Assembly: GCA_035529595.1 (NCBI GenBank)
Contig: DATKWK010000023.1
Coordinates: 206,961 to 270,960, forward strand
Reading direction: 5' to 3'
DNA: 64,000 nt
From: Candidatus Bathyarchaeia archaeon
GTDB lineage: Bacteria > Patescibacteriota > Microgenomatia > PFEM01 > JAFGMK01
Below are positions 19,748 through 32,223 of the stretch, one piece after another (position 1 is the first letter of the stretch; each line of letters starts with the position of its first letter). A program made the translations under genes and the position numbers. The notes beneath the pieces were generated by a model. That model did no database searches and was not told where the DNA came from. It saw only the letters and a list, made by a program, of their open reading frames with translations.

Positions 19748-20797
19748 TTAGAATTGGTTTAAAATTCTTAGATCAGTGGAATAAAATAAGCGTAAGTCAG
19801 GTAGTTTTAGTCCTGATTTCATCATCATTACCCGTTCGACTCCCCAACCGAAAGCATAACCGGAATATATATCAGGATCAAGGCCACCATTTTTTAGCAC
19901 TACCGGATGGACCATACCTGAGCCTCCCAATTCCAGCCAGCCTTCCTTACAGAGACGACAACCTTTTCCCTGGCAAACGCCGCAAGTAATATCAACCTCA
20001 AAAGAAGGTTCAGTAAATCGGAAGTGAAAAGGCCGGAGACGAGTTTTTCTTTCTGGACCAAAAAACTCTCGGGCAAAATAGTCAAAAGTTCCTTTAAGGT
20101 GGGCAATATTTATTTCCCGATCAATTAATAATCCTTCGAATTGGTGAAACATTGGTGTATGAGAGATATCGTAGTTCGGACGGTAGACTTTACCAATATT
20201 AATCATACGAATCGGTGGGCTCAAGTGTTTTTCTTGGTAATATTCCATTTCGCGGATCTGGCCAGAGGAAGTATGGGGGGTTAAAAGCATTTTTCCCCAA
20301 TCTTCGGAAGGAGGAGGATCGAGATAAAAAGTTTCAAAGTCATCTCTGGCTGGGTGAATTTCCGGCATGTTTAAGTGTTCAAAGGCGTACCGGTCCCATT
20401 CGACCTCCGGATATCTGACGCGGATAAATCCGGTTCGCTCGAAAATTTCTGTAATTTCTCTGATTGCCTGAGTGACTAAATGCAGGTGACCAAGGGTTGG
20501 ATTTATGCCGGGTAAGGTAATATCAAACCATTCCTTTGTATCCGTTTGTTTTTTTTCCAAGATTGTTTCCGATTCGATCAGAAGACTTTCTATCTCTTTT
20601 TTAAGCTGGTTGATTTGATTACCCGTCGCTGACCGTTTCGGTATTGGTAATTCTGAAAGCGTTTTAATCGCCCGGTTAATTTTTCCCTTACGACCCAGAT
20701 AGGTAATCCGAAGTTGTTCCAGTTCACCTTTATTATTGGCTTTCTCGATTAACGAAAATGCTTCTTTTCTTAATTCTCGAATCTTTATATCGGGCAT
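19748..20797 (-). CDS. pheS: Phenylalanine--tRNA ligase alpha subunit
   Basis: Class II motifs FRxE/FTEPS..., GxGxGxER-like GWGVERV and the Cys cluster CGVCQGKGCRLC. Confidence 0.9.
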   Translation of the reverse strand: MPDIKIRELRKEAFSLIEKANNKGELEQLRITYLGRKGKINRAIKTLSELPIPKRSATGNQINQLKKEIESLLIESETILEKKQTDTKEWFDITLPGINPTLGHLHLVTQAIREITEIFERTGFIRVRYPEVEWDRYAFEHLNMPEIHPARDDFETFYLDPPPSEDWGKMLLTPHTSSGQIREMEYYQEKHLSPPIRMINIGKVYRPNYDISHTPMFHQFEGLLIDREINIAHLKGTFDYFAREFFGPERKTRLRPFHFRFTEPSFEVDITCGVCQGKGCRLCKEGWLELGGSGMVHPVVLKNGGLDPDIYSGYAFGWGVERVMMMKSGLKLPDLRLFYSTDLRILNQF

Positions 20798-20860
20798 ATT
20801 TACATTTTAGAATAGCATAAAAACTTATTTATCAGCAACATGACTCTGATGCTAAATCAT

Positions 20861-21019
20861 AAAAAAACCTCCCGTTTGGGAGGTGATTTTCCCTTAAAAA
20901 ATGCAAAACCAACCTCCTTTAGGCAGTGTTAGCTAAAAACCTTTTTTCTACATACTGCTAGAGTTATGGTTGGAGCTTGCATTGGCAGGATTATAAAAAG
21001 ACTTTTTTTCCTTGTCAAG
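20861..21019 (-). promoter_or_regulatory. pheST promoter plus attenuator-like leader
   Basis: On the - strand: TTGACA (21018-21013), 17-nt spacer, TATAAT (20995-20990); then a leader with GGAGGUUGG followed by the hairpin CCUCCC-AAAC-GGGAGG plus U7 (20883-20861), all upstream of the pheS ATG at 20797. Confidence 0.5.
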
Positions 21020-21052
21020 GGGGAATTAAGTAGCATATTCCGATACAAGCAA

Positions 21053-21412
21053 TCAGGCTAATGGCGATTGGTTTTTTACCTGATTGATAATCGAATTAAA
21101 GGTCTTGGAGTCAGTCATTGCCAATTCGGCCAGAATCTTTCGATTTAGTTCAATATTTGACTTCTTAAGGCAGGCGATCAGTTGGGAGTAATTTAGGTCA
21201 TAGTTTTTTAAGGCCGCATTAATTCTGGTTATCCAAAGCCGCCGGATATTTCTTTTTCTGCGCTTTCGACCGACAAAAGCATATTGACCGGCATGCAGAT
21301 CTGCCTCTTTTGATACCTTATAAAGCCGGCCTTTAGTCATCCTAAAGCCTTTAGTTCTGTTAAGTACTTTGTGATGCCTTTTTCTCTTAGTTATCCCAGA
21401 TTTGATACGCAC
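21053..21412 (-). CDS. rplT: 50S ribosomal protein L20
   Basis: RKRRKRNIRRLWITRINAA... is canonical L20. Confidence 0.9.
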   Translation of the reverse strand: MRIKSGITKRKRHHKVLNRTKGFRMTKGRLYKVSKEADLHAGQYAFVGRKRRKRNIRRLWITRINAALKNYDLNYSQLIACLKKSNIELNRKILAELAMTDSKTFNSIINQVKNQSPLA

Positions 21413-21448
21413 TTTTCAGTCCTCGTCGATCATCCTGTAAATAAAATT

Positions 21449-21661
21449 TTATTTCCCTAGAGCTTTTTTGACGCCTCTTTTCAAACGTCCTTTAATCTCC
21501 TTGTCTTTTTTCTGCAAACGTAATTGCCCTTTAGTTTTTTTACGACACAGGTGTCGGACATGAGAGCCTCGCCGGAGAACTTTTCCGGTCTTGGTAATCT
21601 TAAACCTTCTCGATATCGATTTTTTAGTTTTGAATTTCTTTTTTTTGTTGGTCTTTTTCAT
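21449..21661 (-). CDS. rpmI: 50S ribosomal protein L35
   Basis: KTKKSISRRFKITKTGKVLRRG aligns with the L35 core. The start is placed at the internal Met (MKKTNKKKKF) rather than the ORF-track start; this gives a 38-nt overlap with infC. Confidence 0.6.
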   Translation of the reverse strand: MKKTNKKKKFKTKKSISRRFKITKTGKVLRRGSHVRHLCRKKTKGQLRLQKKDKEIKGRLKRGVKKALGK

Positions 21662-22172
21662 TTGGATAGATAATAAAAACCAATTGACGGCCGACAATCT
21701 TAGGTTCCTGCCCGATTTGACTGTTATCGGCCAGTGATTCAATCACCGTCTTTGCCAAACGGTAACCAAATTCTTTCTTAGCAATTTCCCGGCCCCGAAA
21801 GACAATAGTTATTTTAACTTGATCCTTTTCCTTTAAAAACTTACGGATTTTCTCAATCCGATTTTTCAAGTCGTTTTCGGCAATAAACGGACTCAGTCTT
21901 ACCTCTTTAATATTGCTTTTCTTGCCTTTTTTACCAGTATTTTTCTTAGCTTCCAGATAGCGAAATTTTTTAAAATCAATAATTTTGCAGACCGGTGGTT
22001 CCGCGTTAGGTGCGATTTCTACCAGGTCAAGCCCTTCTTTTTGCGATTCAAGTAAGGCCTGATCGCGACTTAGAATACCGATTTGTTTGCCTGTTTCGTC
22101 AACTACACGCAGTTTGCTGGCCTGAATATATTGATTAATCCGATAAAACTTTTTTTGGTGATACTTTCCCAA
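21624..22172 (-). CDS. infC: Translation initiation factor IF-3
   Basis: RINQYI...VRLV-like N-domain and LDLVEIAPNAEPPVCKIIDFKKF C-domain. Exact start codon uncertain. Confidence 0.85.
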   Translation of the reverse strand: MGKYHQKKFYRINQYIQASKLRVVDETGKQIGILSRDQALLESQKEGLDLVEIAPNAEPPVCKIIDFKKFRYLEAKKNTGKKGKKSNIKEVRLSPFIAENDLKNRIEKIRKFLKEKDQVKITIVFRGREIAKKEFGYRLAKTVIESLADNSQIGQEPKIVGRQLVFIIYPNEKDQQKKEIQN

Positions 22173-22226
22173 TATTAAAAAAACCGAATATTAAATTAGA
22201 AACTAGTTATTATTATCTTATCAAAC

Positions 22227-23993
22227 TTACCTTTTTTTATCAATATCAGTTTGAATTAACTCAATTGCTTTTTTAACTGAAATCAGGCCAAGATTCTTTT
22301 CTCCTCTGGCCCGGGCATTGACGCCTTTGGCTTTAATCTCTTTGTCGCCAACGACCAACATATAGGGAATCTTTTTAAGCTCTGCATCCCGGATTTTAGC
22401 CGAGGTAGTTTGATTATGGTTGTCAACTTCAACCCTAATTTTTCCTTTCTTTAGAGATTCTTCAACCTCACGGGCATAGTTAAGATGGTTATCAGTGATA
22501 GGAATGATGATTGCTTGGGTTGGCGTCAGCCATACCGGAAAAGCGCCGCCGCAGTGTTCGATAAAGACACCGATGAATCGCTCAAGTGATCCAAGCAAGG
22601 CTCGGTGGATCATAAAAGGTACTTTTTTCTTTCCGTCTTTATCAATATAACTCATCTTAAATCTTGACGGTAAATTAAAATCAACTTGAATTGTCGATAA
22701 TTGCCATTTTCTTTCCAGGGCATCGGTTACTTTAACATCAATTTTAGGTCCATAAAAAACTGCTCCGCCAATATCAAGTACAAAATCTTGATAACCGGTA
22801 TCGATAAGCGCCCTTTTAAGATAAGTCTCTGCCGTTTGCCAACCTTGATCGTCGCCGATAAATTTTTCTTTGTCTTCAGGGTCGCGAAGACTGAGATTCA
22901 TTTCAAATTTCTTAAAGCCAAAAGAGTTTAAAATGTAAGTCGTTAACTTTAGGGCTTCCGTTAATTCTCGGTGCAACTGCTCAGCGGTGCAAATAATGTG
23001 GGCATCATCTTGGGTGAAGCCTCTGACTCTTGTTAGCCCGTGAAGGACTCCTGATTTTTCGTATCGGTAAACGGTTCCCATTTCCGCCAAGCGCAAGGGC
23101 AAATCCCGGTAACTTCTCATGGAGCTGTTATAAATCTTGACATGGAAAGGACAATTCATCGGCTTTAAACGATACATTTGGTCTTCAATTCCAAAAGGGG
23201 AATACATGTTTTCCGAATAAAACTTCAAGTGTCCTGAATGCGACCATAAGATTTCCCGAGCGATATGAGGAGTGCTGACCGGCTGGTAGCCTCTGTCTAG
23301 GTAAGTATTAAAGGCAAATTCCATAATCTTGTGTCTTAAAAAAGCCCCTTTTGGTTTCCAGAGTGGTAAGCCGTGGCCAACCTCTTCATCAAACATAAAA
23401 AGATCCAGTTCTTCACCCAAGTGCCGATGGTCTCTTTTCAGTGCCTCTTGCCGATGAATCAGATATGTTTCCAAAGCCGATTTAGTCGGAAAACAGGTGC
23501 CGTAGATGCGGGTAAGCATTTTGTTTTTCTCGTCTCCTCGCCAATAAGCACCGGCCAAGGTAAGCATCTTAAAGGGTCCAATTTGGCTGGTACTTCTTAC
23601 ATGTGGTCCGCTGCAGAGGTCAATAAAATCTCCCAAGGTATAAAACGTAACCGTTTTTTGGCCCTCTTTTTGTAAATCTTTTATCAACTCGACTTTATAG
23701 GTTTGTCCCAGTTCAGCCGCAATTTCCAACGCTTTTTTAATGGAAACATCTTTTTTATCAAATGAAATATTTTTCTTCTGCAACTTTCGCATTAGGGCTT
23801 CAATCTTGAGAAGATCTTTTTCCGAAATCTCGATCGGAATATCAACGTCATAATAAAAGCCATCTTCAATCGCCGGACCAATTGCAAAACGTGTTTTCGA
23901 ATAAAGCAGACTGATGGCATAGGCCATCAGATGGGCACAACTATGGCGCATTGTTTCTAATTTAACCGGCACCTCTTTTGTTTTTTTTGCCAT
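22227..23993 (-). CDS. thrS: Threonine--tRNA ligase
   Basis: Editing-domain HxxxH/CxxxH region (RHSCAHLMA), class II catalytic core and a C-terminal anticodon-binding domain. Confidence 0.9.
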   Translation of the reverse strand: MAKKTKEVPVKLETMRHSCAHLMAYAISLLYSKTRFAIGPAIEDGFYYDVDIPIEISEKDLLKIEALMRKLQKKNISFDKKDVSIKKALEIAAELGQTYKVELIKDLQKEGQKTVTFYTLGDFIDLCSGPHVRSTSQIGPFKMLTLAGAYWRGDEKNKMLTRIYGTCFPTKSALETYLIHRQEALKRDHRHLGEELDLFMFDEEVGHGLPLWKPKGAFLRHKIMEFAFNTYLDRGYQPVSTPHIAREILWSHSGHLKFYSENMYSPFGIEDQMYRLKPMNCPFHVKIYNSSMRSYRDLPLRLAEMGTVYRYEKSGVLHGLTRVRGFTQDDAHIICTAEQLHRELTEALKLTTYILNSFGFKKFEMNLSLRDPEDKEKFIGDDQGWQTAETYLKRALIDTGYQDFVLDIGGAVFYGPKIDVKVTDALERKWQLSTIQVDFNLPSRFKMSYIDKDGKKKVPFMIHRALLGSLERFIGVFIEHCGGAFPVWLTPTQAIIIPITDNHLNYAREVEESLKKGKIRVEVDNHNQTTSAKIRDAELKKIPYMLVVGDKEIKAKGVNARARGEKNLGLISVKKAIELIQTDIDKKR

Positions 23994-24011
23994 TTTTTAC
24001 TATTTGCTAAA

Positions 24012-24275
24012 TTATTTTATAGATTGGAGAGCGTTTTCGGTGGCTTTAACCAGATCAGCCAGGATCTCTCCGACAAAAGGTAAACCGCCAAAGGCCGAAA
24101 TCAGCCGGCTTAAATAGGACAGAACCAAAGCAAAAATAAGTGTTAACCCCAAAGCCTGGCCTAAACCATAGGCCATTCCCAGGAAAAAATATTCCATTGC
24201 TCTTCGTGTTAAACTTTTTTCAGAATAATTGCGCTTGGATAATTTTCCTTGCGTCTTTTCAGGCATGATCTCCAC
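24012..24275 (-). CDS. Small hypothetical membrane protein
   Basis: 87 aa with two hydrophobic helices. Confidence 0.35.
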   Translation of the reverse strand: MEIMPEKTQGKLSKRNYSEKSLTRRAMEYFFLGMAYGLGQALGLTLIFALVLSYLSRLISAFGGLPFVGEILADLVKATENALQSIK

Positions 24276-24393
24276 TGGCTGAATTTTACCCTGATGATAC
24301 CTTAAAACAAAAAAACCTGCAACTATTGCAGGAGTCCCGAAAGTTGGTGACGTTTACGGCCTACTTCCCTGCTCCTAATTAATCCTTTTCTAG

Positions 24394-24467
24394 TGGGCTC
24401 GACAGGACTCGAACCTGTGACCTTTTCGATGTCAACGAAACGCTCTAGCCAACTGAGCTACGAGCCC
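24394..24467 (-). tRNA. tRNA-Val(GAC)
   Basis: 74-nt cloverleaf GGGCTCG.../...CGAGCCC, anticodon loop TTGACAT, T-loop GGTTCGAGTCC; CCA not encoded. Confidence 0.85.
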
Positions 24468-24487
24468 ATAACAATTCATATGAGAAA

Positions 24488-24787
24488 TTAAGTATATTTT
24501 TGATCTTCCAGAAGTTTAATCTTTCTTTGGCAGATTCCGATTCTTCGGTCGTGGTCAACGCTCTTTTCAAGGGAAATATCCAATTTTCGTTCGACCCGAA
24601 TCATATCCTCTTTCAGTCCGGAAACATCCTCTTTCAGTCCGGAAACATCCTCTTTGAGATCAAAAATTGGTTCTAAAACTTTTTCCTCTAAAAATTTACT
24701 GATTTCACCGGTATACTTTCTCAATTGCTGGATCAAATAAGTTTTTGTAATCGGTTGATCATTGTTTACCTTTTTCTTCATAGTCAC
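24488..24787 (-). CDS. Small coiled-coil protein with an internal heptapeptide tandem repeat (LKEDVSG x ~2.5)
   Basis: Clean 99-aa ORF. The repeat is encoded by a 21-bp tandem DNA repeat. Confidence 0.45.
   Translation of the reverse strand: MTMKKKVNNDQPITKTYLIQQLRKYTGEISKFLEEKVLEPIFDLKEDVSGLKEDVSGLKEDMIRVERKLDISLEKSVDHDRRIGICQRKIKLLEDQKYT
24600..24660 (-). repeat. 21-bp tandem repeat (~2.5 copies) inside the CDS
   Basis: atcctctttcagtccggaaac repeated head-to-tail at 24605-24625 and 24626-24646, with a partial third copy. Confidence 0.7.
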
Positions 24788-24852
24788 ACTTTAACACCTA
24801 GCCTTTACTCTGTCAATTGAAGCAGGAATTTCTATTTCGGTCAGGATTATTG

Positions 24853-26154
24853 CTATTTTATTCTCACATCGGTAAGCACGGCATCTGAAGCACCTCTCAC
24901 TTTCCAATGAGGTCTGAAGTTAGCTGTTATGCCAATAAAGCATATTTTTCCCGTCTGTGGGTTCCTTGAATAAATAGGCATGAATCTAGCATGCATATTT
25001 TCCTCTACTAGACTCTCTTGTTCTTGGTCAAAATAACGAACCGGGAATTTTGGGGAATAATACGGTTGAATAATCCAGGGCTGGCCGCTTAAGGCTAAAT
25101 CATCATAACATCTATGAATGGTTGTCCACCGACTATTCGAAAAAGGATCCAATCTCCATACCTGTCTTGAGCCGAAGCTTAATTTCATCAGCGAACCGGC
25201 ATATTTATAAACAATTTCATCATCAGCCCACCGAGGTAAATCTAGTAAATGATCTAAAATATGTGTCGGTGCAAAAAGAGCTCGATCATGGTCATTGAAT
25301 AAAGTTTTTAGTTTTGGGTGAAAAGGAAATGCCATTGCCAACTTCTGATCAAAGATCACATTTAATGGCGGTTCAATTGCCACTTCTCCCCGCAGATTTC
25401 TTTCTATCAGTTTTCTGCCAGTCGGAGATTCAGCAAGCATAGGCAGATTTAGTTCTCTTCGGTAAATAAAATCAGCATCTCGTATTTCCTCCTCCCAATC
25501 ATTTATTAGAACCACCTCACAATTTAAACCCTGTCTTTGTTTTAGCAATGAGGCGAAGTAAGCTGATTCGCCAAGGTAATTTGTTGGGCAGAGAAGAACT
25601 ACTCGATGCGGTTCTCTACCTAATTTTGCTCTTACAGCCATGGCAAAACCTGAATCCAGTGCAATGTCAACCACATTTTTTCCTAATGAAGGTTCGGGGT
25701 TAACTGCTTGCATAACTTCTGATATGGCACTCATATAACCCCATCCGCCGATTCTGAATTGGACTTCGACAGCCGACCAAAAGTCAGTCAGATCGGCTCT
25801 GGCAAAAAGCGGCAGTTCGCCTCTTTGTGCAAGCATTCTCTGGTATTTGATTGCTTGAGGAGAAAGATTGCTTTCAAAAAGAGAGGCTATCCAATGATAA
25901 CGATAATTGGTAGTTCCTGCCAGATAAAGCTGGTTTGTCATTTCTAGCCAATGGTAAATCCATACTCCTTGAGATAAGACTGAAGCTGCTTCCTGGTTAC
26001 AGACATTAAAACTGTCCGGTGTAACCAGCATAGAATACGATTGTTGGTCACCGTACCCCAATCTTCGTTGGTCAAGTGCAGATTTTATTTGGCAGACTCT
26101 TTCCAAATCGAGATTTTCGCTATGAATTGTTGCAGGTGGTTTTTCAACCGACAC
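24853..26154 (-). CDS. Glutathionylspermidine-synthetase-family (YgiC/YjfC-like) ATP-grasp amidoligase
   Basis: Motif spacing matches the E. coli YgiC pattern as recalled from memory: FPFHPKLKTL vs FPNHPNLLPA, and WIIQPYYSPKFP vs MIVQQFHPLPKF. It overlaps the upstream gene by 11 nt, so the two are co-transcribed. Confidence 0.5.
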   Translation of the reverse strand: MSVEKPPATIHSENLDLERVCQIKSALDQRRLGYGDQQSYSMLVTPDSFNVCNQEAASVLSQGVWIYHWLEMTNQLYLAGTTNYRYHWIASLFESNLSPQAIKYQRMLAQRGELPLFARADLTDFWSAVEVQFRIGGWGYMSAISEVMQAVNPEPSLGKNVVDIALDSGFAMAVRAKLGREPHRVVLLCPTNYLGESAYFASLLKQRQGLNCEVVLINDWEEEIRDADFIYRRELNLPMLAESPTGRKLIERNLRGEVAIEPPLNVIFDQKLAMAFPFHPKLKTLFNDHDRALFAPTHILDHLLDLPRWADDEIVYKYAGSLMKLSFGSRQVWRLDPFSNSRWTTIHRCYDDLALSGQPWIIQPYYSPKFPVRYFDQEQESLVEENMHARFMPIYSRNPQTGKICFIGITANFRPHWKVRGASDAVLTDVRIK

Positions 26155-27100
26155 CTTTTTTTTCCTTTCCAGCTGTTTGCCCCAGAGCTAAAATTTTGTC
26201 ACCAGTTTTGACAATATTTGGCTCTGAAATCATAATTATTTGCCCTGCTATCGGAGTTTTTACTTTTTCCGAATCTAGAGTTTCCAATGACACGATTTTT
26301 CCAAAAGGGATATTTACTTGAATGTTTTCACCCGTTTTTTTAAGAGGGATAAATAAACCAGAGATCGGAGAGGTTACTATCTTGCGATTAATGATCGGGA
26401 CTTTGTTTACAGTTCGGTAAAACTTATCAGTAATTGTGTTTCTGACAACAACCGATATGCCTCTTAAAATCTTTTTAATTTGATCTGAACTAATTTTATC
26501 AATAAGAGGGAGTTCTAATGCAAAAGCGATATTGTTTCTAATTAGAAGTAATTCTATCAAAGACCCTTTTTTATCGATGTCCTCTCCCTGGGTATCTAAT
26601 TTCCAAATAAAATCGGGATTAAAAAGATATAGAAACTTTTGAGTTTTAGTCATTAATTTATCCTTCTTGTCAATTGGAACGAGAATTCCGGTAATCAGGA
26701 GGTCCATTTTAGGAAATGTATGAAAATCTATTAATAGATTACTATCCTTAACTGCCTGAAAAAGATAATATGCAATTCGCTCAGAAAGGGTTCCTTTTTT
26801 GTTTCCAGGAAAAAGTCGATTAAGATCCTTGTTATCGGTTGGTAACTCACGGGAATTATTTATGAGACAGAGCGGATTAGCAAAAGGTATAATTTTGATG
26901 GTTCCGTTTATTTGCGGCCAATTCTTGATCTTTTGAAACAATCTTTCTAAGATTAACGTGCCTGTATCTTCGTTTCCGTGAAGGCCGGAGATTAATGAAA
27001 TAACTGGTTTTCCTTGGCCAATTTTAATAATTGGAATTTGGATATCGATTGGTCCCACACTGCCGATTTTGATCCTTGAAGTTTTAATTTGCTGATTCAT
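26144..27100 (-). CDS. Succinylglutamate desuccinylase/aspartoacylase (AstE/AspA) family Zn-dependent deacylase
   Basis: The GLHGNE metal/catalytic motif near the N-terminus is characteristic of the family; about 318 aa. Confidence 0.6.
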   Translation of the reverse strand: MNQQIKTSRIKIGSVGPIDIQIPIIKIGQGKPVISLISGLHGNEDTGTLILERLFQKIKNWPQINGTIKIIPFANPLCLINNSRELPTDNKDLNRLFPGNKKGTLSERIAYYLFQAVKDSNLLIDFHTFPKMDLLITGILVPIDKKDKLMTKTQKFLYLFNPDFIWKLDTQGEDIDKKGSLIELLLIRNNIAFALELPLIDKISSDQIKKILRGISVVVRNTITDKFYRTVNKVPIINRKIVTSPISGLFIPLKKTGENIQVNIPFGKIVSLETLDSEKVKTPIAGQIIMISEPNIVKTGDKILALGQTAGKEKKGVG

Positions 27101-27106
27101 AGAACT

Positions 27107-27275
27107 AAAAAACCTCCCGTTTGGGAGGTTGTCTTTATGCTTAAATTACTAATAATTATTTTTTAACGCAAATACCAACCTCCCCTTTCTCGAGGTTAAA
27201 AAAGAAAAAACTAAAGATTTGGTTGATATTTCGTAACATTAAAGCAACATTGTAACAGATTTTTTCAGTTTGTCA
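27107..27275 (-). promoter_or_regulatory. Promoter plus attenuator-like leader upstream of the deacylase/amidoligase operon
   Basis: On the - strand: TTGACA (27275-27270), 16-nt spacer, TACAAT (27253-27248); then a leader containing GGGGAGGUUGG and the hairpin CCUCCC-AAAC-GGGAGG plus U6 ending 8 nt before the ATG at 27100. Confidence 0.5.
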
Positions 27276-27313
27276 AATTTTTTGTATAGGTCAAGCAAGC
27301 TTTTCTCGCATAC

Positions 27314-28396
27314 TTAAGATGAAATAATAAATTTTTTAAGAATTCGATAGTAGGTTTCTAGACTTTTAATATTTACCCATTCATTATTAATATGCCCTTT
27401 GCTTTGAACTGGAGCGAACATAATGACTGGGATTCCTTTCGCCGAGAAAAAACGACCATCAGAAGCAGGATAATCTTTTATAATTCTTAGGGGAATATTT
27501 TTTTGCTTGGCAAGCTTTAGTATTTTTTTAATATATTCGTTATCCGGCGATATATCCATGGGATCGCCTTCAATTAAGATTTGAAAGCCAGATTTTTTTT
27601 GTTTTTCTACACTATTGCTTACAATTTTAATTATTTTTTCTCTCATCTCAGTCTCAGGGTAGCGAAAATCAAGATACATTTCTGCCTGTGCTGGAACAAC
27701 ATTAGTTGCACTCCCGCCGCTGATTTTTCCCAAATTAACGGTTGGTTGCCAGCGATCAAACTTGCTTGTTTCCGGTATACGTTTTCTTATTGCCTGAGAA
27801 ATTTCAAGTAATTTCTCAATTGCGTTTACACCTGTCCAAGGCCGACTGGCATGGGCGGATTTTCCTCTTGCAGTGATTTTGATATGAATGATTCCTTTTT
27901 CTTTCAAAACCAGGCGGAAATTTTCTCCCCCATCAGGAATAATTGCGCAATCGCAAGTAAAATTTTCCTTATTAAGTAAATAATTGACCCCATCAAAACC
28001 GCCAACTTCTTCATCTGAAGTAAGCATAAGAGCAAAGTCAATATCTTTTAACTGCATGTCTTGAGCTAATTGGATCATGACGGAAACTGTTCCTTTCATA
28101 TCGGCTGCACCCCTTCCGTAAAGACGATTCTCTTTTATGATTGGGCGAAAGGCATTAGGATAATCTGCAGGGACTACATCTAGATGGCCGTTTAAGATAT
28201 AGCGATAATGCTTTTTAAGCTTTCGAGCTACTATCAAAGATATTTTATTGTTTGAAAAACAAGTTTTGAATCTCAAGCCGTTTTTTTTCAGATAATTCTT
28301 GAGAAACTCAAAACATCTTTGAATTTCATGAGGATGATCTTTGTCAGATTGAAATCTGATTAATTTTGACAGTAGCGGCTGAATTGATTTATTCAT
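27314..28396 (-). CDS. M20-family metallopeptidase (ArgE/DapE/CPG2-like amidohydrolase)
   Basis: NGHLDVVP and GRGAADMKG metal-binding motifs and a dimerisation-domain region. Confidence 0.75.
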   Translation of the reverse strand: MNKSIQPLLSKLIRFQSDKDHPHEIQRCFEFLKNYLKKNGLRFKTCFSNNKISLIVARKLKKHYRYILNGHLDVVPADYPNAFRPIIKENRLYGRGAADMKGTVSVMIQLAQDMQLKDIDFALMLTSDEEVGGFDGVNYLLNKENFTCDCAIIPDGGENFRLVLKEKGIIHIKITARGKSAHASRPWTGVNAIEKLLEISQAIRKRIPETSKFDRWQPTVNLGKISGGSATNVVPAQAEMYLDFRYPETEMREKIIKIVSNSVEKQKKSGFQILIEGDPMDISPDNEYIKKILKLAKQKNIPLRIIKDYPASDGRFFSAKGIPVIMFAPVQSKGHINNEWVNIKSLETYYRILKKFIISS

Positions 28397-28405
28397 TTAT
28401 TCAAT

Positions 28406-30415
28406 CTAGTATAGTCTCTGGGATCTTGCATACGCAAGAATCTTTCCGGCCATTCGTCTGCTAATTGGCACTCCCAGTCCCCCATAGCCGCCCGTAATGT
28501 TAGTTTTACTAGAGCCGGGTGGACTAATCCTGATAACAGGATAGGTATAAACAGTACCGATTGACTGAGGATCTAAATCAAATCTTACTTCTACTGTCTG
28601 TAATTCATGCCTACCGTCTGGTTTCTCTACAAACATAACCGTGGTTGTGCTGTTGTCCAGCTCAATGACCTCTTGGATTAGGCAGTTTTGCCGATTAAGT
28701 GAATTTTCGATTAAAATCGACCAAACACGATCATAGAGTGATTCTAGTTGATCGGTTTCTATTCTGGCTGATCGTTCCGCTATGCCTTGCCTGATGACTA
28801 ATTGGGCTATCTCTGCAGGCGATTTTCCGCTTTCGCCTGGTGTTAAAGCACGCCCAGTGATTAAATCTTGCCTGAAAACACCATTATGCCAGGCGTCAGT
28901 AAACTCTGCCCTGCTCATTCCTGTAATAGTCGTAAGATCATCGTTTTCCATAGCGATATAATCTTCGTAATCAAGCTCATCCAAATTAATTGATCTGCCG
29001 ACATGGACACTGGTTCCGGAATGTCCCGCTAAAGAATCTCTTTTAAGAACCCAAGCTTGTCTATTATTTTCGATAGTATCGATCTCAGTATCGTTTAGAC
29101 AAAGGCTTCGGTAGCTCTCATCGCCGGGATAGAGACCGTCGTTTTGCCTCCGGAGCATGTTAGCTTGGGGAATGCATCTTTCAAGAATATTTTTTATTCC
29201 TTCAACGCCCATGTCCTTGACCGCCCGGGATAGCGAGAGATCGTGGCTAAGTTGATCATGGGCTAGAATTCTAGAGACTGTTTCCCAGACCCCAAAACGG
29301 TCTAAGTAATCTTGATTCCCAAGCATTACGTCCATTTTCTTGTCGGTTGAATAAGAATTAAAAGGATTTACTACTTGTTGTGTTGCTAGTTTTAAGAATC
29401 TCTGCCAGATAGTCTCTTTGCCATCGCTACATAATTTTTGATCGGTATCATCTTTGAAATTCTGCCATAAATCCAGATTTTCCATTGCTTCTCCGTGTAA
29501 TCGTCTGATTATGCTGACTTCTATTATTTCATCCGATTCTGTGGATTGACAAATAACTAAATAGTAGGGTTCTCTTTGAGGTAAGCTAATTTCTTTAATA
29601 TCCACGATGTCTCTTGGGTCAAAGGCAAGAGCCTGCTGATGATATCTGCCCTGATATCTTTGAGCTGTTTGATTAGCTTCAAGACCGGATAAAGAGCTTC
29701 TTTCTCTCCAGGCCAGATAACCAACTATCGGGTAATCCTTTCTACTCGTCGCCAAACGATATCGGGTGATCATTATTCTCATTATCTGCTCGTCGCTATG
29801 GGGAGCGATTTTTATTCTTTGATCTTCGGATAACTGAAGGCAGAGACCTAATATCTCTTCAACTGTTCGAAGAGCATCGGACACTATTATGTCACCCTGT
29901 GGTTCGCCGCCATTGTTTTCCATCCAGTAAGAAGCACCGCTATTTAAATCAGTATATGTATCTCCTCTCCATCGATGCTGACTTTTTGTCGGAAAAAAAG
30001 GTTGCGAGCGCATAATCTCCCGCGTCAATTGATCAACACCAGCCTCAAAGAAATTTCTTAAGTCTTCATCTTTACTCATTTTCATTAAAATAGCAGCTCG
30101 AACAAGATTGGTTGCTTGAGTATTAAGACCAAGCCCTCTTTCACTTTCTTCAGGAATGATAGTAGGTACAAGGGGGACATTAATTCGTCTGGTAACTTGG
30201 TGTGTTGTTGGATTTTCGAGGAATAGGCTTCTCTCTTGGTAATCCTGCAGAATCCGAAGCGCACCCTCTCGTCTTTTTTGGTCGGAAAGACAATGGGCAA
30301 TAAAGCGGCACATCTCTGACTGTAATTCTTGGAGAGTTAAGGATTCCAGTCTTTCCCGTTCTTGTTCAAAGACGGGGCTTTGAATTTCTAGTTCTTTTCC
30401 AGAATGCAAGACCAT
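28406..30415 (-). CDS. Large hypothetical protein (669 aa) with no recognisable motif, in an operon with the M20 peptidase
   Basis: Uninterrupted 669-codon ORF with normal local composition. It has its own promoter and leader, and stops 10 nt before the M20 start. Confidence 0.5.
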   Translation of the reverse strand: MVLHSGKELEIQSPVFEQERERLESLTLQELQSEMCRFIAHCLSDQKRREGALRILQDYQERSLFLENPTTHQVTRRINVPLVPTIIPEESERGLGLNTQATNLVRAAILMKMSKDEDLRNFFEAGVDQLTREIMRSQPFFPTKSQHRWRGDTYTDLNSGASYWMENNGGEPQGDIIVSDALRTVEEILGLCLQLSEDQRIKIAPHSDEQIMRIMITRYRLATSRKDYPIVGYLAWRERSSLSGLEANQTAQRYQGRYHQQALAFDPRDIVDIKEISLPQREPYYLVICQSTESDEIIEVSIIRRLHGEAMENLDLWQNFKDDTDQKLCSDGKETIWQRFLKLATQQVVNPFNSYSTDKKMDVMLGNQDYLDRFGVWETVSRILAHDQLSHDLSLSRAVKDMGVEGIKNILERCIPQANMLRRQNDGLYPGDESYRSLCLNDTEIDTIENNRQAWVLKRDSLAGHSGTSVHVGRSINLDELDYEDYIAMENDDLTTITGMSRAEFTDAWHNGVFRQDLITGRALTPGESGKSPAEIAQLVIRQGIAERSARIETDQLESLYDRVWSILIENSLNRQNCLIQEVIELDNSTTTVMFVEKPDGRHELQTVEVRFDLDPQSIGTVYTYPVIRISPPGSSKTNITGGYGGLGVPISRRMAGKILAYARSQRLY

Positions 30416-30426
30416 TTTTTTGAAAT

Positions 30427-30630
30427 AAAAAAACCTCCCTGATTTGGGAGGTTCCCTGTTAATACTTTTTACTTTTTAGATTTTACTTTTTATTTTCCAT
30501 TTTCCTCCCAAACCAGCGATTACCTTGCAATAAGGCTAATAATAATGCTGTTAAGGAGGGTTCTGTGCATAATAATTCCTCTTTCTATTGTTGAGCCCAT
30601 ATTATGGAAACATCACTAATAATATGTCAA
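30427..30630 (-). promoter_or_regulatory. Promoter plus attenuator-like leader upstream of the 669-aa gene
   Basis: On the - strand: TTGACA (30630-30625), 18-nt spacer, CATAAT (30606-30601); upstream UUUGGGAGG element; hairpin CCUCCC-AAAUCA-GGGAGG plus U7 (30451-30427) just before the ATG at 30415. Confidence 0.5.
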
Positions 30631-30660
30631 GAGTCAGTTTAACTGACTTTGATCCTGAAC

Positions 30661-31266
30661 TTATCCTGTTTGGGTAGACATATAGCGTTCTTGGGAAAGC
30701 ATAAACTGGGTGCCGGATTTTCGGACCTGGCCCCAATAATAGTTGCGTTTTTTGCTTTTCTGGTTACATAGTGCCAACCAATGACGCGATTCGCTAATAT
30801 TCTTGCGCATAAAAATGATAAACTCGCGTAGTTTTTCAAGAAATGTCAGGTGATAGACGCCAGGTTCCAGCGGCGCCTGCATAGCGGCAATTTTTACTTC
30901 CTTAGCCAGCTCCTGCGTCCCTTGAACTAGTTTGATTAATTCACTTCGAATGGCTTGAATTTGAAGTTTAACTTCCTCCTCCGCCTTCTTAAAAATGACT
31001 CTTTCCTGGGTGCGGATATTGGTAAAGTCCTGGCCTGACCATTTAAATTTTTCTTTTCTTTCAAAATCGGAGGCGAATTTTTCAGATGAAGATTCACTAC
31101 CGGAAAAAGAGCTTTGAGGGGAACGGCCGAACATTTGGTCAAATGAATTCTTGGTTACACCACCTAAGACGTCTTTTTTCACTGACTGACCAAATCCGGA
31201 ACCGATGTCCTTTAAAGATTCCAAAAAATTGCGTTTAATAATTTTCTTTTTCTTTATGTCGTCCAT
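30661..31266 (-). CDS. Hypothetical protein
   Basis: 201-aa ORF with a Lys-rich N-terminus; no motif recognised. Confidence 0.4.
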   Translation of the reverse strand: MDDIKKKKIIKRNFLESLKDIGSGFGQSVKKDVLGGVTKNSFDQMFGRSPQSSFSGSESSSEKFASDFERKEKFKWSGQDFTNIRTQERVIFKKAEEEVKLQIQAIRSELIKLVQGTQELAKEVKIAAMQAPLEPGVYHLTFLEKLREFIIFMRKNISESRHWLALCNQKSKKRNYYWGQVRKSGTQFMLSQERYMSTQTG

Positions 31267-31308: not shown

Positions 31309-32223
31309 CTATATTTTGGACAGGATGTCAATAGCTTTTCTCTTCCGTAAAATCTGTCTGATGTAAGCTTTTTCGGTGGCAGTTTGGAAATTTTTTTGGA
31401 TCTTTTCGTTACCGGTAGCCTTAATCATCTCATCAACTTCCTGATCACTGACTTGGATATTTTCTCGATTGGCAATTTCGGAGAGAATCAATTCCAGCTT
31501 AAGTGATTCTTCCGCCTGCGTACGATATTCTCCTTTTAATTGTTCCAGAGTTTTGCCGATCGAAGCTAAATACTGTTCAACGGTAATTCCTAAGCGCGCC
31601 GTTTGATCAATCAGTCGCGAAAGCATTCGGGTAATTTCCTGCTCGAGTAAGATTTCCGGTAAGCTGATATTCACCGTTTTTATTAAAATAGAAAAAATCC
31701 GGGAAAGCTTTTTATCATCAGGCTGACCTTCTTTTTTGTCAACATTCGGATCTTTTCCCGGAACCCAGATCTTCTCAGGCGCTAAGGTCTTTCTGATTTC
31801 TTCTTTATAATCTTTCAGTTCAACCGGGGGTAATTCGGCTACAATCGCCTTCAAGGTCCAGTCTTGTCCTTCTTTGGAGTCAATCAGATTAAACTTGGGG
31901 TTAACCACCGGACTCAGTTTGTGAGTTTTAATTGCTTCCAGATAGACATCAGTCAATAAGTTCTTGATCATTTCCTGATAGATCTTACTCTTGCCGATTG
32001 TCTTTTCAACCAGTTTTTCCGGTGCTTTCCCCGGTCGAAAACCTTTAATTTTGGCGTCTTTAGTAAATTGTCCAAGAGTGATGTTGTAGCTTTCAGCAAC
32101 AGCATCCCAGGGGATAGTAATGGTGATTTCAACATTGCCGTTTTTAAGGCGTTCGACTTTGCTCTGGGAAAGGGATTTAGTCGCTGTTTTCTGCGGTTTT
32201 TCTCCCTGGTTGTCTTTTTTCAT
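31309..32223 (-). CDS. tig: Trigger-factor-like chaperone (short form)
   Basis: N-terminal ribosome-binding signature GFRPGKAP and a TF-like C-terminal arm; shorter than canonical TF, and the PPIase domain is not obvious. Confidence 0.5.
   Translation of the reverse strand: MKKDNQGEKPQKTATKSLSQSKVERLKNGNVEITITIPWDAVAESYNITLGQFTKDAKIKGFRPGKAPEKLVEKTIGKSKIYQEMIKNLLTDVYLEAIKTHKLSPVVNPKFNLIDSKEGQDWTLKAIVAELPPVELKDYKEEIRKTLAPEKIWVPGKDPNVDKKEGQPDDKKLSRIFSILIKTVNISLPEILLEQEITRMLSRLIDQTARLGITVEQYLASIGKTLEQLKGEYRTQAEESLKLELILSEIANRENIQVSDQEVDEMIKATGNEKIQKNFQTATEKAYIRQILRKRKAIDILSKI

Follow-up and report, generated by a model that had tools for sequence, protein, structure and literature searches.

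The window, as we call the whole of a 64-kb stretch of the 275-kb metagenomic contig DATKWK010000023.1, has three 5' leaders on its minus strand. Judging from their sequences and those of their relatives, these are probably transcription attenuators of the classical, ribosome-mediated leader-peptide type, and the genome is that of a Roizmanbacteria-like bacterium of the Candidate Phyla Radiation (CPR). L1 lies upstream of pheS, and L2 and L3 are the leaders of two deacylase operons; handles with three digits (L003, L019, L033 and so on) denote comparison loci from related CPR genomes. For L2 and L3 we hold the attenuator reading with good confidence, while it is doubtful that L1 functions as a Phe sensor. 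A previous inspection of the same DNA, the sequence-only reading, had proposed an attenuator or riboswitch platform and had hinted at one common signal for the operons, such as uncharged tRNA or an amino acid. The platform is recognizable in its promoter, its terminator and its competing antiterminator strand, and the signal does have to do with amino acids and tRNA charging. The RNA sensor drops out of the proposal, since the sensor appears to be a short open reading frame (ORF), and so does the common signal, because each leader carries its own codons: a Phe run in L2, an Ile/Leu-rich set in L3, and in L1 a Phe run that has been lost.

In the proposed mechanism, a strong promoter would start a transcript that opens with the short ORF, translated from a leaderless or nearly leaderless start in L1 and L2 and from a Shine-Dalgarno sequence in L3. 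The ORF region, strand 1, would pair with the purine-rich strand 2, (G)GGAGG(UUGG). Translation as far as the stop codon would leave the 1:2 hairpin formed or strand 2 masked, and the CCUCCC/GGGAGG terminator (3:4) would then form and end transcription. A ribosome stalled at "hungry" codons in strand 1 would instead leave strand 2 free for 2:3 pairing, and RNA polymerase would read into the operon. L2 would thus sense Phe-tRNA through its FSFFFF run and control an AstE-like deacylase and a 433-residue protein; L3 would sense Ile/Leu (LL..III.LI) and control a ligase-like 669-residue protein and an M20 deacylase; L1, the leader of the Phe-type family that precedes pheST, may have decayed in part or may depend on translation in a general way only. 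Because the regulatory codons are pyrimidine-rich (UUU/UUC/CUC/CUU), strand 2 would be purine-rich, and hence strand 3 pyrimidine-rich and strand 4 purine-rich (CCUCC/GGAGG). This constraint, together with the paralogy of L1 and L2, would explain why three leaders carry the same terminator, and the attenuator reading would account for that sharing without a new RNA sensor.

The decisive line of evidence is comparative: in related genomes, the codon run of the predicted leader peptide matches the synthetase encoded downstream, Phe with pheS and Thr with thrS. This codon-to-gene association is a direct observation, as are the sequences, ORFs, alternative pairings and homology described below. 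Relatives of the window's pheS, at 53-66% identity, are found in Candidatus Roizmanbacteria and other CPR genomes, and Phe-run leaders precede pheS at five loci (L003, L004, L019, L032 and L033). Two of the five leader peptides belong to the sequence family of L1 (L019, MRKPTNPLRNFFSFF; L033, MQVPTKTQTASFRFFNL); the other three are unrelated to that family (L003, MNQSRNGFFTFFKP; L004, MKTFSFSGFCFRIN; L032, MKFFFFTSFFFTID), each with its own terminator and matching antiterminator. A scan of 54 loci for a terminator plus a short ORF, combined with thrS coordinates, found Thr-run leaders with terminators directly upstream of thrS at no fewer than ten, that is at least ten, distinct loci in related CPR genomes (L007, L008, L009, L010, L012, L016, L017, L042, L052 and L053; for example, L052:6889-6983). 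Examples of the Thr peptides are MKLVFITTTTNSA in L052, MIIFANNFNTTTTYS in L009 and MKIHFNSNCTTTTPF in L042, as well as MIILNNNINTTTTHA. The Thr codons form strand 1 in these leaders, many of which have CCCTCC/GGAGGG terminators. The window's own thrS (23993-22227) has no Thr-run leader.

L1, L2, L019 and L033 belong to one sequence family, having in common an ATGC..CCAACC helix with GGAGGTTGG, and are scored at 98-135 bits by a covariance model, R1. The model does not match L3, which represents a separate sequence family. L1 and L2 are paralogs in which conservation is confined to the functional strands, the loops and linkers having diverged. The N-terminus of the L1 peptide (MQ.PT) is that of the L019 and L033 peptides, but the U-run of L033 is replaced by AAAAAAGG in L1.

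In every leader the position of the short ORF is such that a ribosome stalled in it would free the antiterminator strand, and this ORF takes the place of the separate sensing domain for which the sequence-only reading had left room. The L2 ORF (27239-27156, minus strand; MLRNINQIFSFFFFNLEKGEVGICVKK) contains the codons TTT AGT TTT TTC TTT TTT (FSFFFF) at 27215-27198, which pair directly with the antiterminator strand GAGAAAGGGGAGG (the GGGGAGG strand). The Ile/Leu-rich L3 ORF (30570-30520, minus strand; MHRTLLNSIIISLIAR) has a Shine-Dalgarno sequence, AAGAGG, at 30583-30578, 8 nucleotides upstream of its ATG at 30570; its codons ACC CUC CUU supply the CCCUCC partner of GGGAGG, with AUU AUU AUU just downstream (Ile codons at 30546-30538). 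The L1 ORF (20982-20929, minus strand; MQAPTITLAVCRKKVFS) has a lone Phe codon, at 20937-20935. At least five Phe codons in the L2 ORF were matched by 24 of 2000 dinucleotide shuffles, and at least four Ile codons in the L3 ORF by 42 of 2000. The L1 ATG at 20982 lies 7 nucleotides past the -10 hexamer, a spacing seen also in L033 and L019, and the L2 ATG at 27239 lies 9 nucleotides past it; such short spacing suggests leaderless, or nearly leaderless, translation of both ORFs.

In the predicted folds of all three leaders, which have z-scores from -2.0 to -3.5, a linker joins a large 5' hairpin to the terminator. The purine-rich (G)GGAGG(UUGG) makes up the 3' side of that first hairpin and is also able to pair with the 5' arm of the terminator. 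In L1, strand 2 (20928-20901, minus strand) contains GGAGGTTGG at 20917-20909, including GGAGGT, and has two alternative partners, strand 1 (20982-20954) and the 5' arm of the terminator. L2 strand 2 (27185-27175, minus strand) is GGGGAGGTTGG, including GGGAGGTTG, and its partners are the Phe-codon run plus CAACC in strand 1 or, over 9 bp, the terminator sequence CAACCTCCC. In L3 the corresponding strand (30512-30504, minus strand; TTTGGGAGG) can pair with CCCTCC in strand 1 (30560-30555) or with the terminator sequence CCTCCCAAA. Duplex energies for the 1:2, 2:3 and 3:4 pairings are -22.1, -16.9 and -15.1 kcal/mol in L1, -19.2, -18.8 and -15.2 kcal/mol in L2, and -20.6, -19.9 and -18.1 kcal/mol in L3. 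Both folds and duplex energies therefore yield the mutually exclusive alternatives that the sequence-only reading had proposed looking for, in the layout of a classical four-strand attenuator. An upstream strand able to pair with the terminator's 5' arm, another of its claims, is present in every leader, and for L2 and L3 the 2:3 complementarity was reached by none of 300 dinucleotide shuffles each; for L1 it does not stand out from shuffled sequence. Among 22 leaders of the clade, 15 have 2:3 complementarity in the lowest 2.3% or so of shuffles (no more than 7 of 300), and from leader to leader, changes in the antiterminator strand go together with changes in the terminator (UUUGGGAGG/CCUCCCAAA versus GGUGAGAG/CUCUCACC). 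Counts of co-transcriptional pairing from truncated transcripts were too noisy and were not used.

A simple ribosome model is consistent with switching in both deacylase leaders. A 28-nucleotide footprint was forced unpaired at every A-site position and the leader was refolded, an equilibrium calculation that is indicative only. In this model L2 adopts the antiterminator with the A site at codons 2-11 (through IFSF) and L3 with the A site at codons 2-12 (through III), and both switch back to the terminator as the ribosome nears the stop codon. The same ribosome-position switch is reproduced for L033, L032, L004, L058, L009, L042 and L053.

The terminators themselves are far from chance occurrences. 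The pattern CCTCCC-N3-8-GGGAGG occurs three times in the window (20868-20883, 27113-27128 and 30434-30451, with loops of N4 or N6 and then a T-run) against 0.02 expected, and 0 of 100 shuffles reach three. On the minus strand the copies with hairpin and T-run occupy 20884-20867, 27130-27111 and 30453-30432, each hairpin having 7-10 bp. The complete elements are the L1 terminator at 20884-20861 (ACCTCCCAAACGGGAGGT followed by T7), the L2 terminator at 27130-27105 (AACCTCCCAAACGGGAGGTT and a T-run) and the L3 terminator at 30455-30424 (GGAACCTCCCAAATCAGGGAGGTTTT and a T-run), all on the minus strand. Hairpin energies are -12.0, -12.9 and -15.1 kcal/mol for L1, L2 and L3, a U-run follows each, and all three are situated downstream of the leader ORF and ahead of the structural genes. 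Every copy lies 110-170 nucleotides downstream of a near-consensus sigma70-type promoter that is among the best in the region: TTGACA-17-TATAAT for L1 (21018-20990, minus strand; 12 of 12 consensus positions), TG-extended TTGACA-16-TACAAT for L2 (27276-27249, minus strand; 11 of 12) and TTGACA-18-CATAAT for L3 (30630-30601, minus strand; 11 of 12). The sequence-only reading was thus right that the three leaders share a sigma70-like promoter and a near-identical CCUCCC/GGGAGG terminator. It had also allowed that the hairpin might be no more than the commonest terminator of this genome; in a terminator scan of the window, strong sites with hairpin and U-run are scarce, and none of the CCTCCC type is found at a gene 3' end, which within these 64 kb speaks against that possibility.

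Its placement of each terminator immediately before a start codon holds for L2 (ATG 27100), roughly for L3 (ATG 30415), and not for pheS, whose ATG at 20797 lies about 65 nucleotides past the L1 hairpin; the ATG adjoining that hairpin opens a two-codon ORF (ATG ATT TAG). These distances bear on translational control, in which the gene downstream would have the GGGAGG 3' arm for its Shine-Dalgarno sequence, sequestered until strand 2 opens the stem. The L2 terminator does place GGAGG 12 nucleotides before ATG 27100, a possible Shine-Dalgarno sequence for a gene that has no other, and in L1 GGAGG stands 7 nucleotides before an ATG. That L1 start, however, is the one that opens the two-codon ORF; the spacing in L3 is 18 nucleotides; orthologous terminators (GGCGGG, GAGAGG) either do not resemble Shine-Dalgarno sequences or are far from the start codon; and a canonical U-run follows all three hairpins. 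We regard translational control as a highly improbable explanation of the leaders, and at most an extra layer for L2.

Several observations weigh against attenuation. The L1 ORF with its single Phe codon is unremarkable, 388 of 2000 dinucleotide shuffles doing as well; its 2:3 complementarity is not significant, being equaled in 38 of 300 shuffles; and in the ribosome model L1 stays in the terminator state at every position. The equilibrium model also fails for the relatives L019, L059, L060, L012 and L004b. U-runs give Phe in any reading frame, so raw Phe counts overstate the evidence from U-rich leaders. In L004, L022 and L026, what follows the L3-type leader is not a ligase-M20 pair but small ORFs unrelated to it. 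For L2 and L3, any match of Phe or Ile/Leu to the substrates of the enzymes encoded downstream is conjectural. Finally, it is from sequence that we deduce that the ORFs are translated, that ribosomes stall in them, that the start is leaderless and what the physiological role would be.

L1, as judged by sequence, is a structurally intact and clear member of the Phe-type family, but its Phe run is gone and its antiterminator is the weakest. With a single Phe codon and so poor an antiterminator, L1 is doubtful as a leader that responds to Phe. Alternative frames of L1 and a second, UUG-initiated ORF after its GGAGG were considered and rejected, neither yielding a Phe run; nor does a -1 shift at A_AAA_AAG (20949-20943, framed as a classic -1 slippery heptamer would be), after which the -1 frame ends at GF*. 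L1 may still respond to translation in general; if it is decaying instead, pheST may be expressed by those transcripts of the 12/12 promoter that escape termination, or by way of a weak promoter-like site, TTGCTG-18-TATTCT, noticed in the sequence at about 20833-20804, past the L1 terminator and ahead of pheS.

The missing codon run and insignificant antiterminator of L1 speak for a constitutive or decayed arrangement: the hairpins would be terminators of small RNAs that end close to the promoter, or stabilizing 5' stem-loops, shared because the leaders are recent paralogs, and no switching would take place. The paralogy of L1 and L2 agrees with such an arrangement, as do the weak promoter-like sequence ahead of pheS and another leader in the window, at 48780-48653, which has a promoter-proximal hairpin and U-run with no ORF. 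Against it, only the functional strands are kept between L1 and L2, the 2:3 complementarity of L2 and L3 is highly non-random, orthologous leaders of other genomes retain the three-way complementarity with different sequences, and a strong constant terminator ahead of the essential pheST would be costly. As an account of the three leaders we consider it unlikely, although it could apply to L1 alone.

A sensing RNA of the riboswitch or T-box kind was the other interpretation to weigh. On this view an unrecognized RNA domain, once bound to uncharged tRNA or to a small molecule, would stabilize the antiterminator and give the three operons one signal. The 5' hairpin is conserved and structured, the genome uses a T-box elsewhere, and the UGGU in GGAGGUUGGU could pair with an ACCA 3' end. 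Regions 20700-21100 and 27000-30750 were searched with Rfam covariance models at the gathering threshold and at E<=10. No gathering-level match was found in the leaders, and at E<=10 there was only sub-threshold noise from Phe_leader, PyrR and small-RNA models. The T-box model RF00230 gave no match to these regions even at E<=10, and neither a Stem I/specifier nor a T-box sequence was seen there, in agreement with the view of the sequence-only reading that the leaders are not T-boxes. This negative is meaningful because a true T-box was detected in the window, at 14357-14064 on the minus strand, with 94.5 bits and a terminator at 14076-14052. There is no specifier-type stem, L1 lacks UUC, and L033 has UGGA in place of UGGU; the T-box-like interpretation of the UGGU was rejected on the missing specifier and the L033 variant. 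The interior of the hairpin is unconserved except for the codon runs, and L3 has no 5' domain in common with L1 and L2. An aptamer model does not predict that codon runs fit the downstream synthetase in relatives. An RNA sensor of this kind has, in our estimation, very little chance of being correct.

The true T-box shows an arrangement of its own. In the region 14357-13950 (minus strand) the T-box is followed directly by tRNA-Tyr(GTA) at 14034-13950, then by three further genes and tyrS, so that the first gene of the operon appears to be the cognate tRNA itself; the specifier region GAAUUACC contains UAC.

The genes behind L1, likewise on the minus strand, are pheS (20797-19748) and pheT (19745-17712), identified by Pfam and by annotation. 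The L2 operon (27100-24853, minus strand) encodes an AstE/AspA-family deacylase (27100-26144) and a 433-residue protein with no detectable family (26154-24853), and the L3 operon (30415-27314, minus strand) encodes the 669-residue protein (30415-28406) and an M20 deacylase of the ArgE/DapE family (28396-27314). In L056, homologs of the AstE-like, 433-residue-like and M20 genes are in a single operon, so L2 and L3 would appear to control two halves of one module. Only three distant homologs of the AstE-like gene were found; the leaders of those in L056 and L057 have terminators and no clear codon-run ORF. Orthologs of the 669-residue protein in L058, L059 and L060 (42-47% identity) have an Ile/Leu-rich leader ORF and a terminator upstream, and are followed by one to four M20 genes at every locus readable downstream.

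An AlphaFold model of the 669-residue protein, built from six sequences (predicted local distance difference test, pLDDT, 79), has glutathione synthetases of the eukaryotic type, along with related ligases, as its Foldseek matches (E-value 8e-10; TM 0.41-0.46 by query and 0.56-0.62 by target), and also resembles the ligase Cp1B and a putative glutathionylspermidine synthase (3n6x). By this model, the protein is probably an ATP-grasp-type amide ligase. The 433-residue protein, to which the sequence-only reading had given the label amidoligase, found only itself in a homolog search, showed no relation to the 669-residue protein, and gave an unusable single-sequence AlphaFold model (pLDDT 35). 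The label is unverified, and the ligase-like predicted fold belongs instead to the 669-residue protein, which had been called an orphan. The N-acyl amino acids that aminoacylase-3, of the AstE/AspA family, deacylates are aromatic, and those on which M20 aminoacylases act are aliphatic. This CPR lineage is presumably unable to make its own amino acids. We infer that the L2 and L3 enzymes may scavenge Phe and Ile/Leu, respectively, in an organism without amino-acid biosynthesis.

Both deacylase operons occupy a variable slot (24480-30640) between the gene for DUF5660 and tRNA-Val(GAC). L3-type leaders, recognized by MxRNLL..II, occur directly after DUF5660, the slot of L3 itself, in L022 (MQRNLLTIIAKVLFIKG), L026 (MYRNLLTISALVLFIKG) and L004 (MIRNLSLIISINLFIGVSA). 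The slot is empty in L033 (L033:1640-2100), while in L004 (2590-3400), L022 (2790-3450) and L026 homologous attenuators are followed by unrelated small ORFs, some of them Cys-rich. The L004 slot has two tandem attenuators, one of Ile/Leu type and then one with MNATNNILFGFYFTS, mirroring the order of L3 and L2. The small ORFs after the L3-type leaders of L004 and L022 showed no homology to a 99-residue ORF of the window; their presence counsels caution about a tight functional link between leader and cargo. In L060 (1-3962) the ligase-M20 operon with its Ile/Leu leader divergently adjoins genes for the biosynthesis of aromatic amino acids, encoding prephenate dehydratase, chorismate mutase and DAHP synthase.

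Three features of the window lie apart from this system. The leader at 48780-48653 (minus strand) consists of a consensus-like promoter and two successive elements with hairpin and U-run, ending about 6 nucleotides before ATG 48652 of a gene for a 182-residue secreted protein; lacking a leader ORF, it represents a different, unexplained type of leader. The trigger factor (31309-32223, minus strand) has just 304 residues, with N- and C-terminal domains and no peptidyl-prolyl isomerase domain detectable by Pfam. NCBI names proteins identical to those encoded at 26144-27100, 28406-30415 and 24853-26154 as "Candidatus Bathyarchaeia archaeon", from a metagenome-assembled genome (MAG) in third-party annotation (TPA), while relatives and gene content are those of Roizmanbacteria and other CPR bacteria; the source contig is probably mis-binned or mislabeled.

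Taken across genomes, the leaders incline us, by a modest degree, to the view that there is a clade-wide CPR regulon of codon-specific leader-peptide attenuators, several of them apparently leaderless, that acts on synthetase genes (Phe with pheS, Thr with thrS) and, in this genome, on a rare ATP-grasp-like ligase/deacylase module divided into Phe-controlled and Ile/Leu-controlled halves. If so, the leader codons would be a built-in label of the amino acids that the enzymes of the module supply or handle, with functional hints for genes that lack a family: a response to Ile/Leu for the 669-residue ligase-like protein and its M20 partner, and to Phe for the AstE-like deacylase and the 433-residue protein. 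It would also imply tight coupling of transcription and translation in Patescibacteria, with monitoring of the charging of individual tRNAs, in bacteria about whose gene regulation almost nothing is known. The combination of a promoter, a short codon-run ORF and a CCUCC/GGAGG switch may be a scannable signature for uncultured genomes, of which there are thousands. The literature searched contains no description of leader-peptide attenuation in CPR bacteria or of thrS leaders, an absence that is not proof of novelty.

Among known systems, pheM-pheST of Escherichia coli offers the nearest design. It lies between rplT and pheS, with an ORF of 14-17 codons that contains a Phe run, and U-rich codons that face a purine-rich strand; its CCUCC/GGAGG terminator (GCCUCCCAGUGGAGGC followed by U7) faces competition for one arm from the upstream CCAGGAGGC (GGAGGC). 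L2 in the window and the pheS leaders L003, L004, L019, L032 and L033 match this design, as does the second L004 attenuator, MNATNNILFGFYFTS. Unlike pheM, the CPR leaders have no alignable homology to it, come from the CPR phylum and have an apparent leaderless start (ATG 7 nucleotides past the -10 hexamer in L1, L033 and L019); moreover, L1 has no Phe run, and the Phe-type copy L2 controls the deacylase operon rather than pheST. The Rfam family RF01859, Phe_leader (pheL-pheA of Enterobacteria), similarly combines a Phe-codon leader peptide with a GCCUCCC...GGGAGGC terminator, but it regulates pheA. Its scores of 21.6 bits for L1, 32.6 for L2 (E-value 0.009) and 26.9 for L3, against a gathering threshold of 55, exclude the leaders from membership; the matches are partial, lie mostly over the terminator, and would arise because pyrimidine-rich regulatory codons impose the CCUCC/GGAGG theme. 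T-boxes (RF00230) likewise sense tRNA charging for synthetase genes with a terminator/antiterminator output, whereas the leaders of the window would sense through a translated ORF.

L3 and its relatives (MxRNLL..II..) recall the branched-chain leaders of Proteobacteria (ilvGMEDA, ilvBN, leu), in which short peptides rich in Ile, Leu and Val are followed by an antiterminator and a terminator, a multivalent hydrophobic attenuation; the ilv-leu operon of Staphylococcus aureus also has a Leu-rich attenuator peptide (PMC5794164). The cargo of the L3-type leaders, in contrast, is non-biosynthetic, comprising an ATP-grasp-like ligase with one or more M20 deacylases, or small unrelated ORFs near tRNA-Val. 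Classical attenuators ahead of synthetase genes have been described for pheST in gamma-proteobacteria and for trpS and leuS in Streptomyces (Seliverstov et al. 2005, PMC1262725). The Streptomyces cases resemble the present one in that leader-peptide attenuation governs synthetase genes outside Proteobacteria, and differ from it in phylum and in genes, which here are pheS and, in relatives, thrS with its Thr runs. The mechanism is a known one; what is new is the phylum and the targets, an ATP-grasp-like ligase with an M20 deacylase and an AstE-like deacylase with the 433-residue protein.

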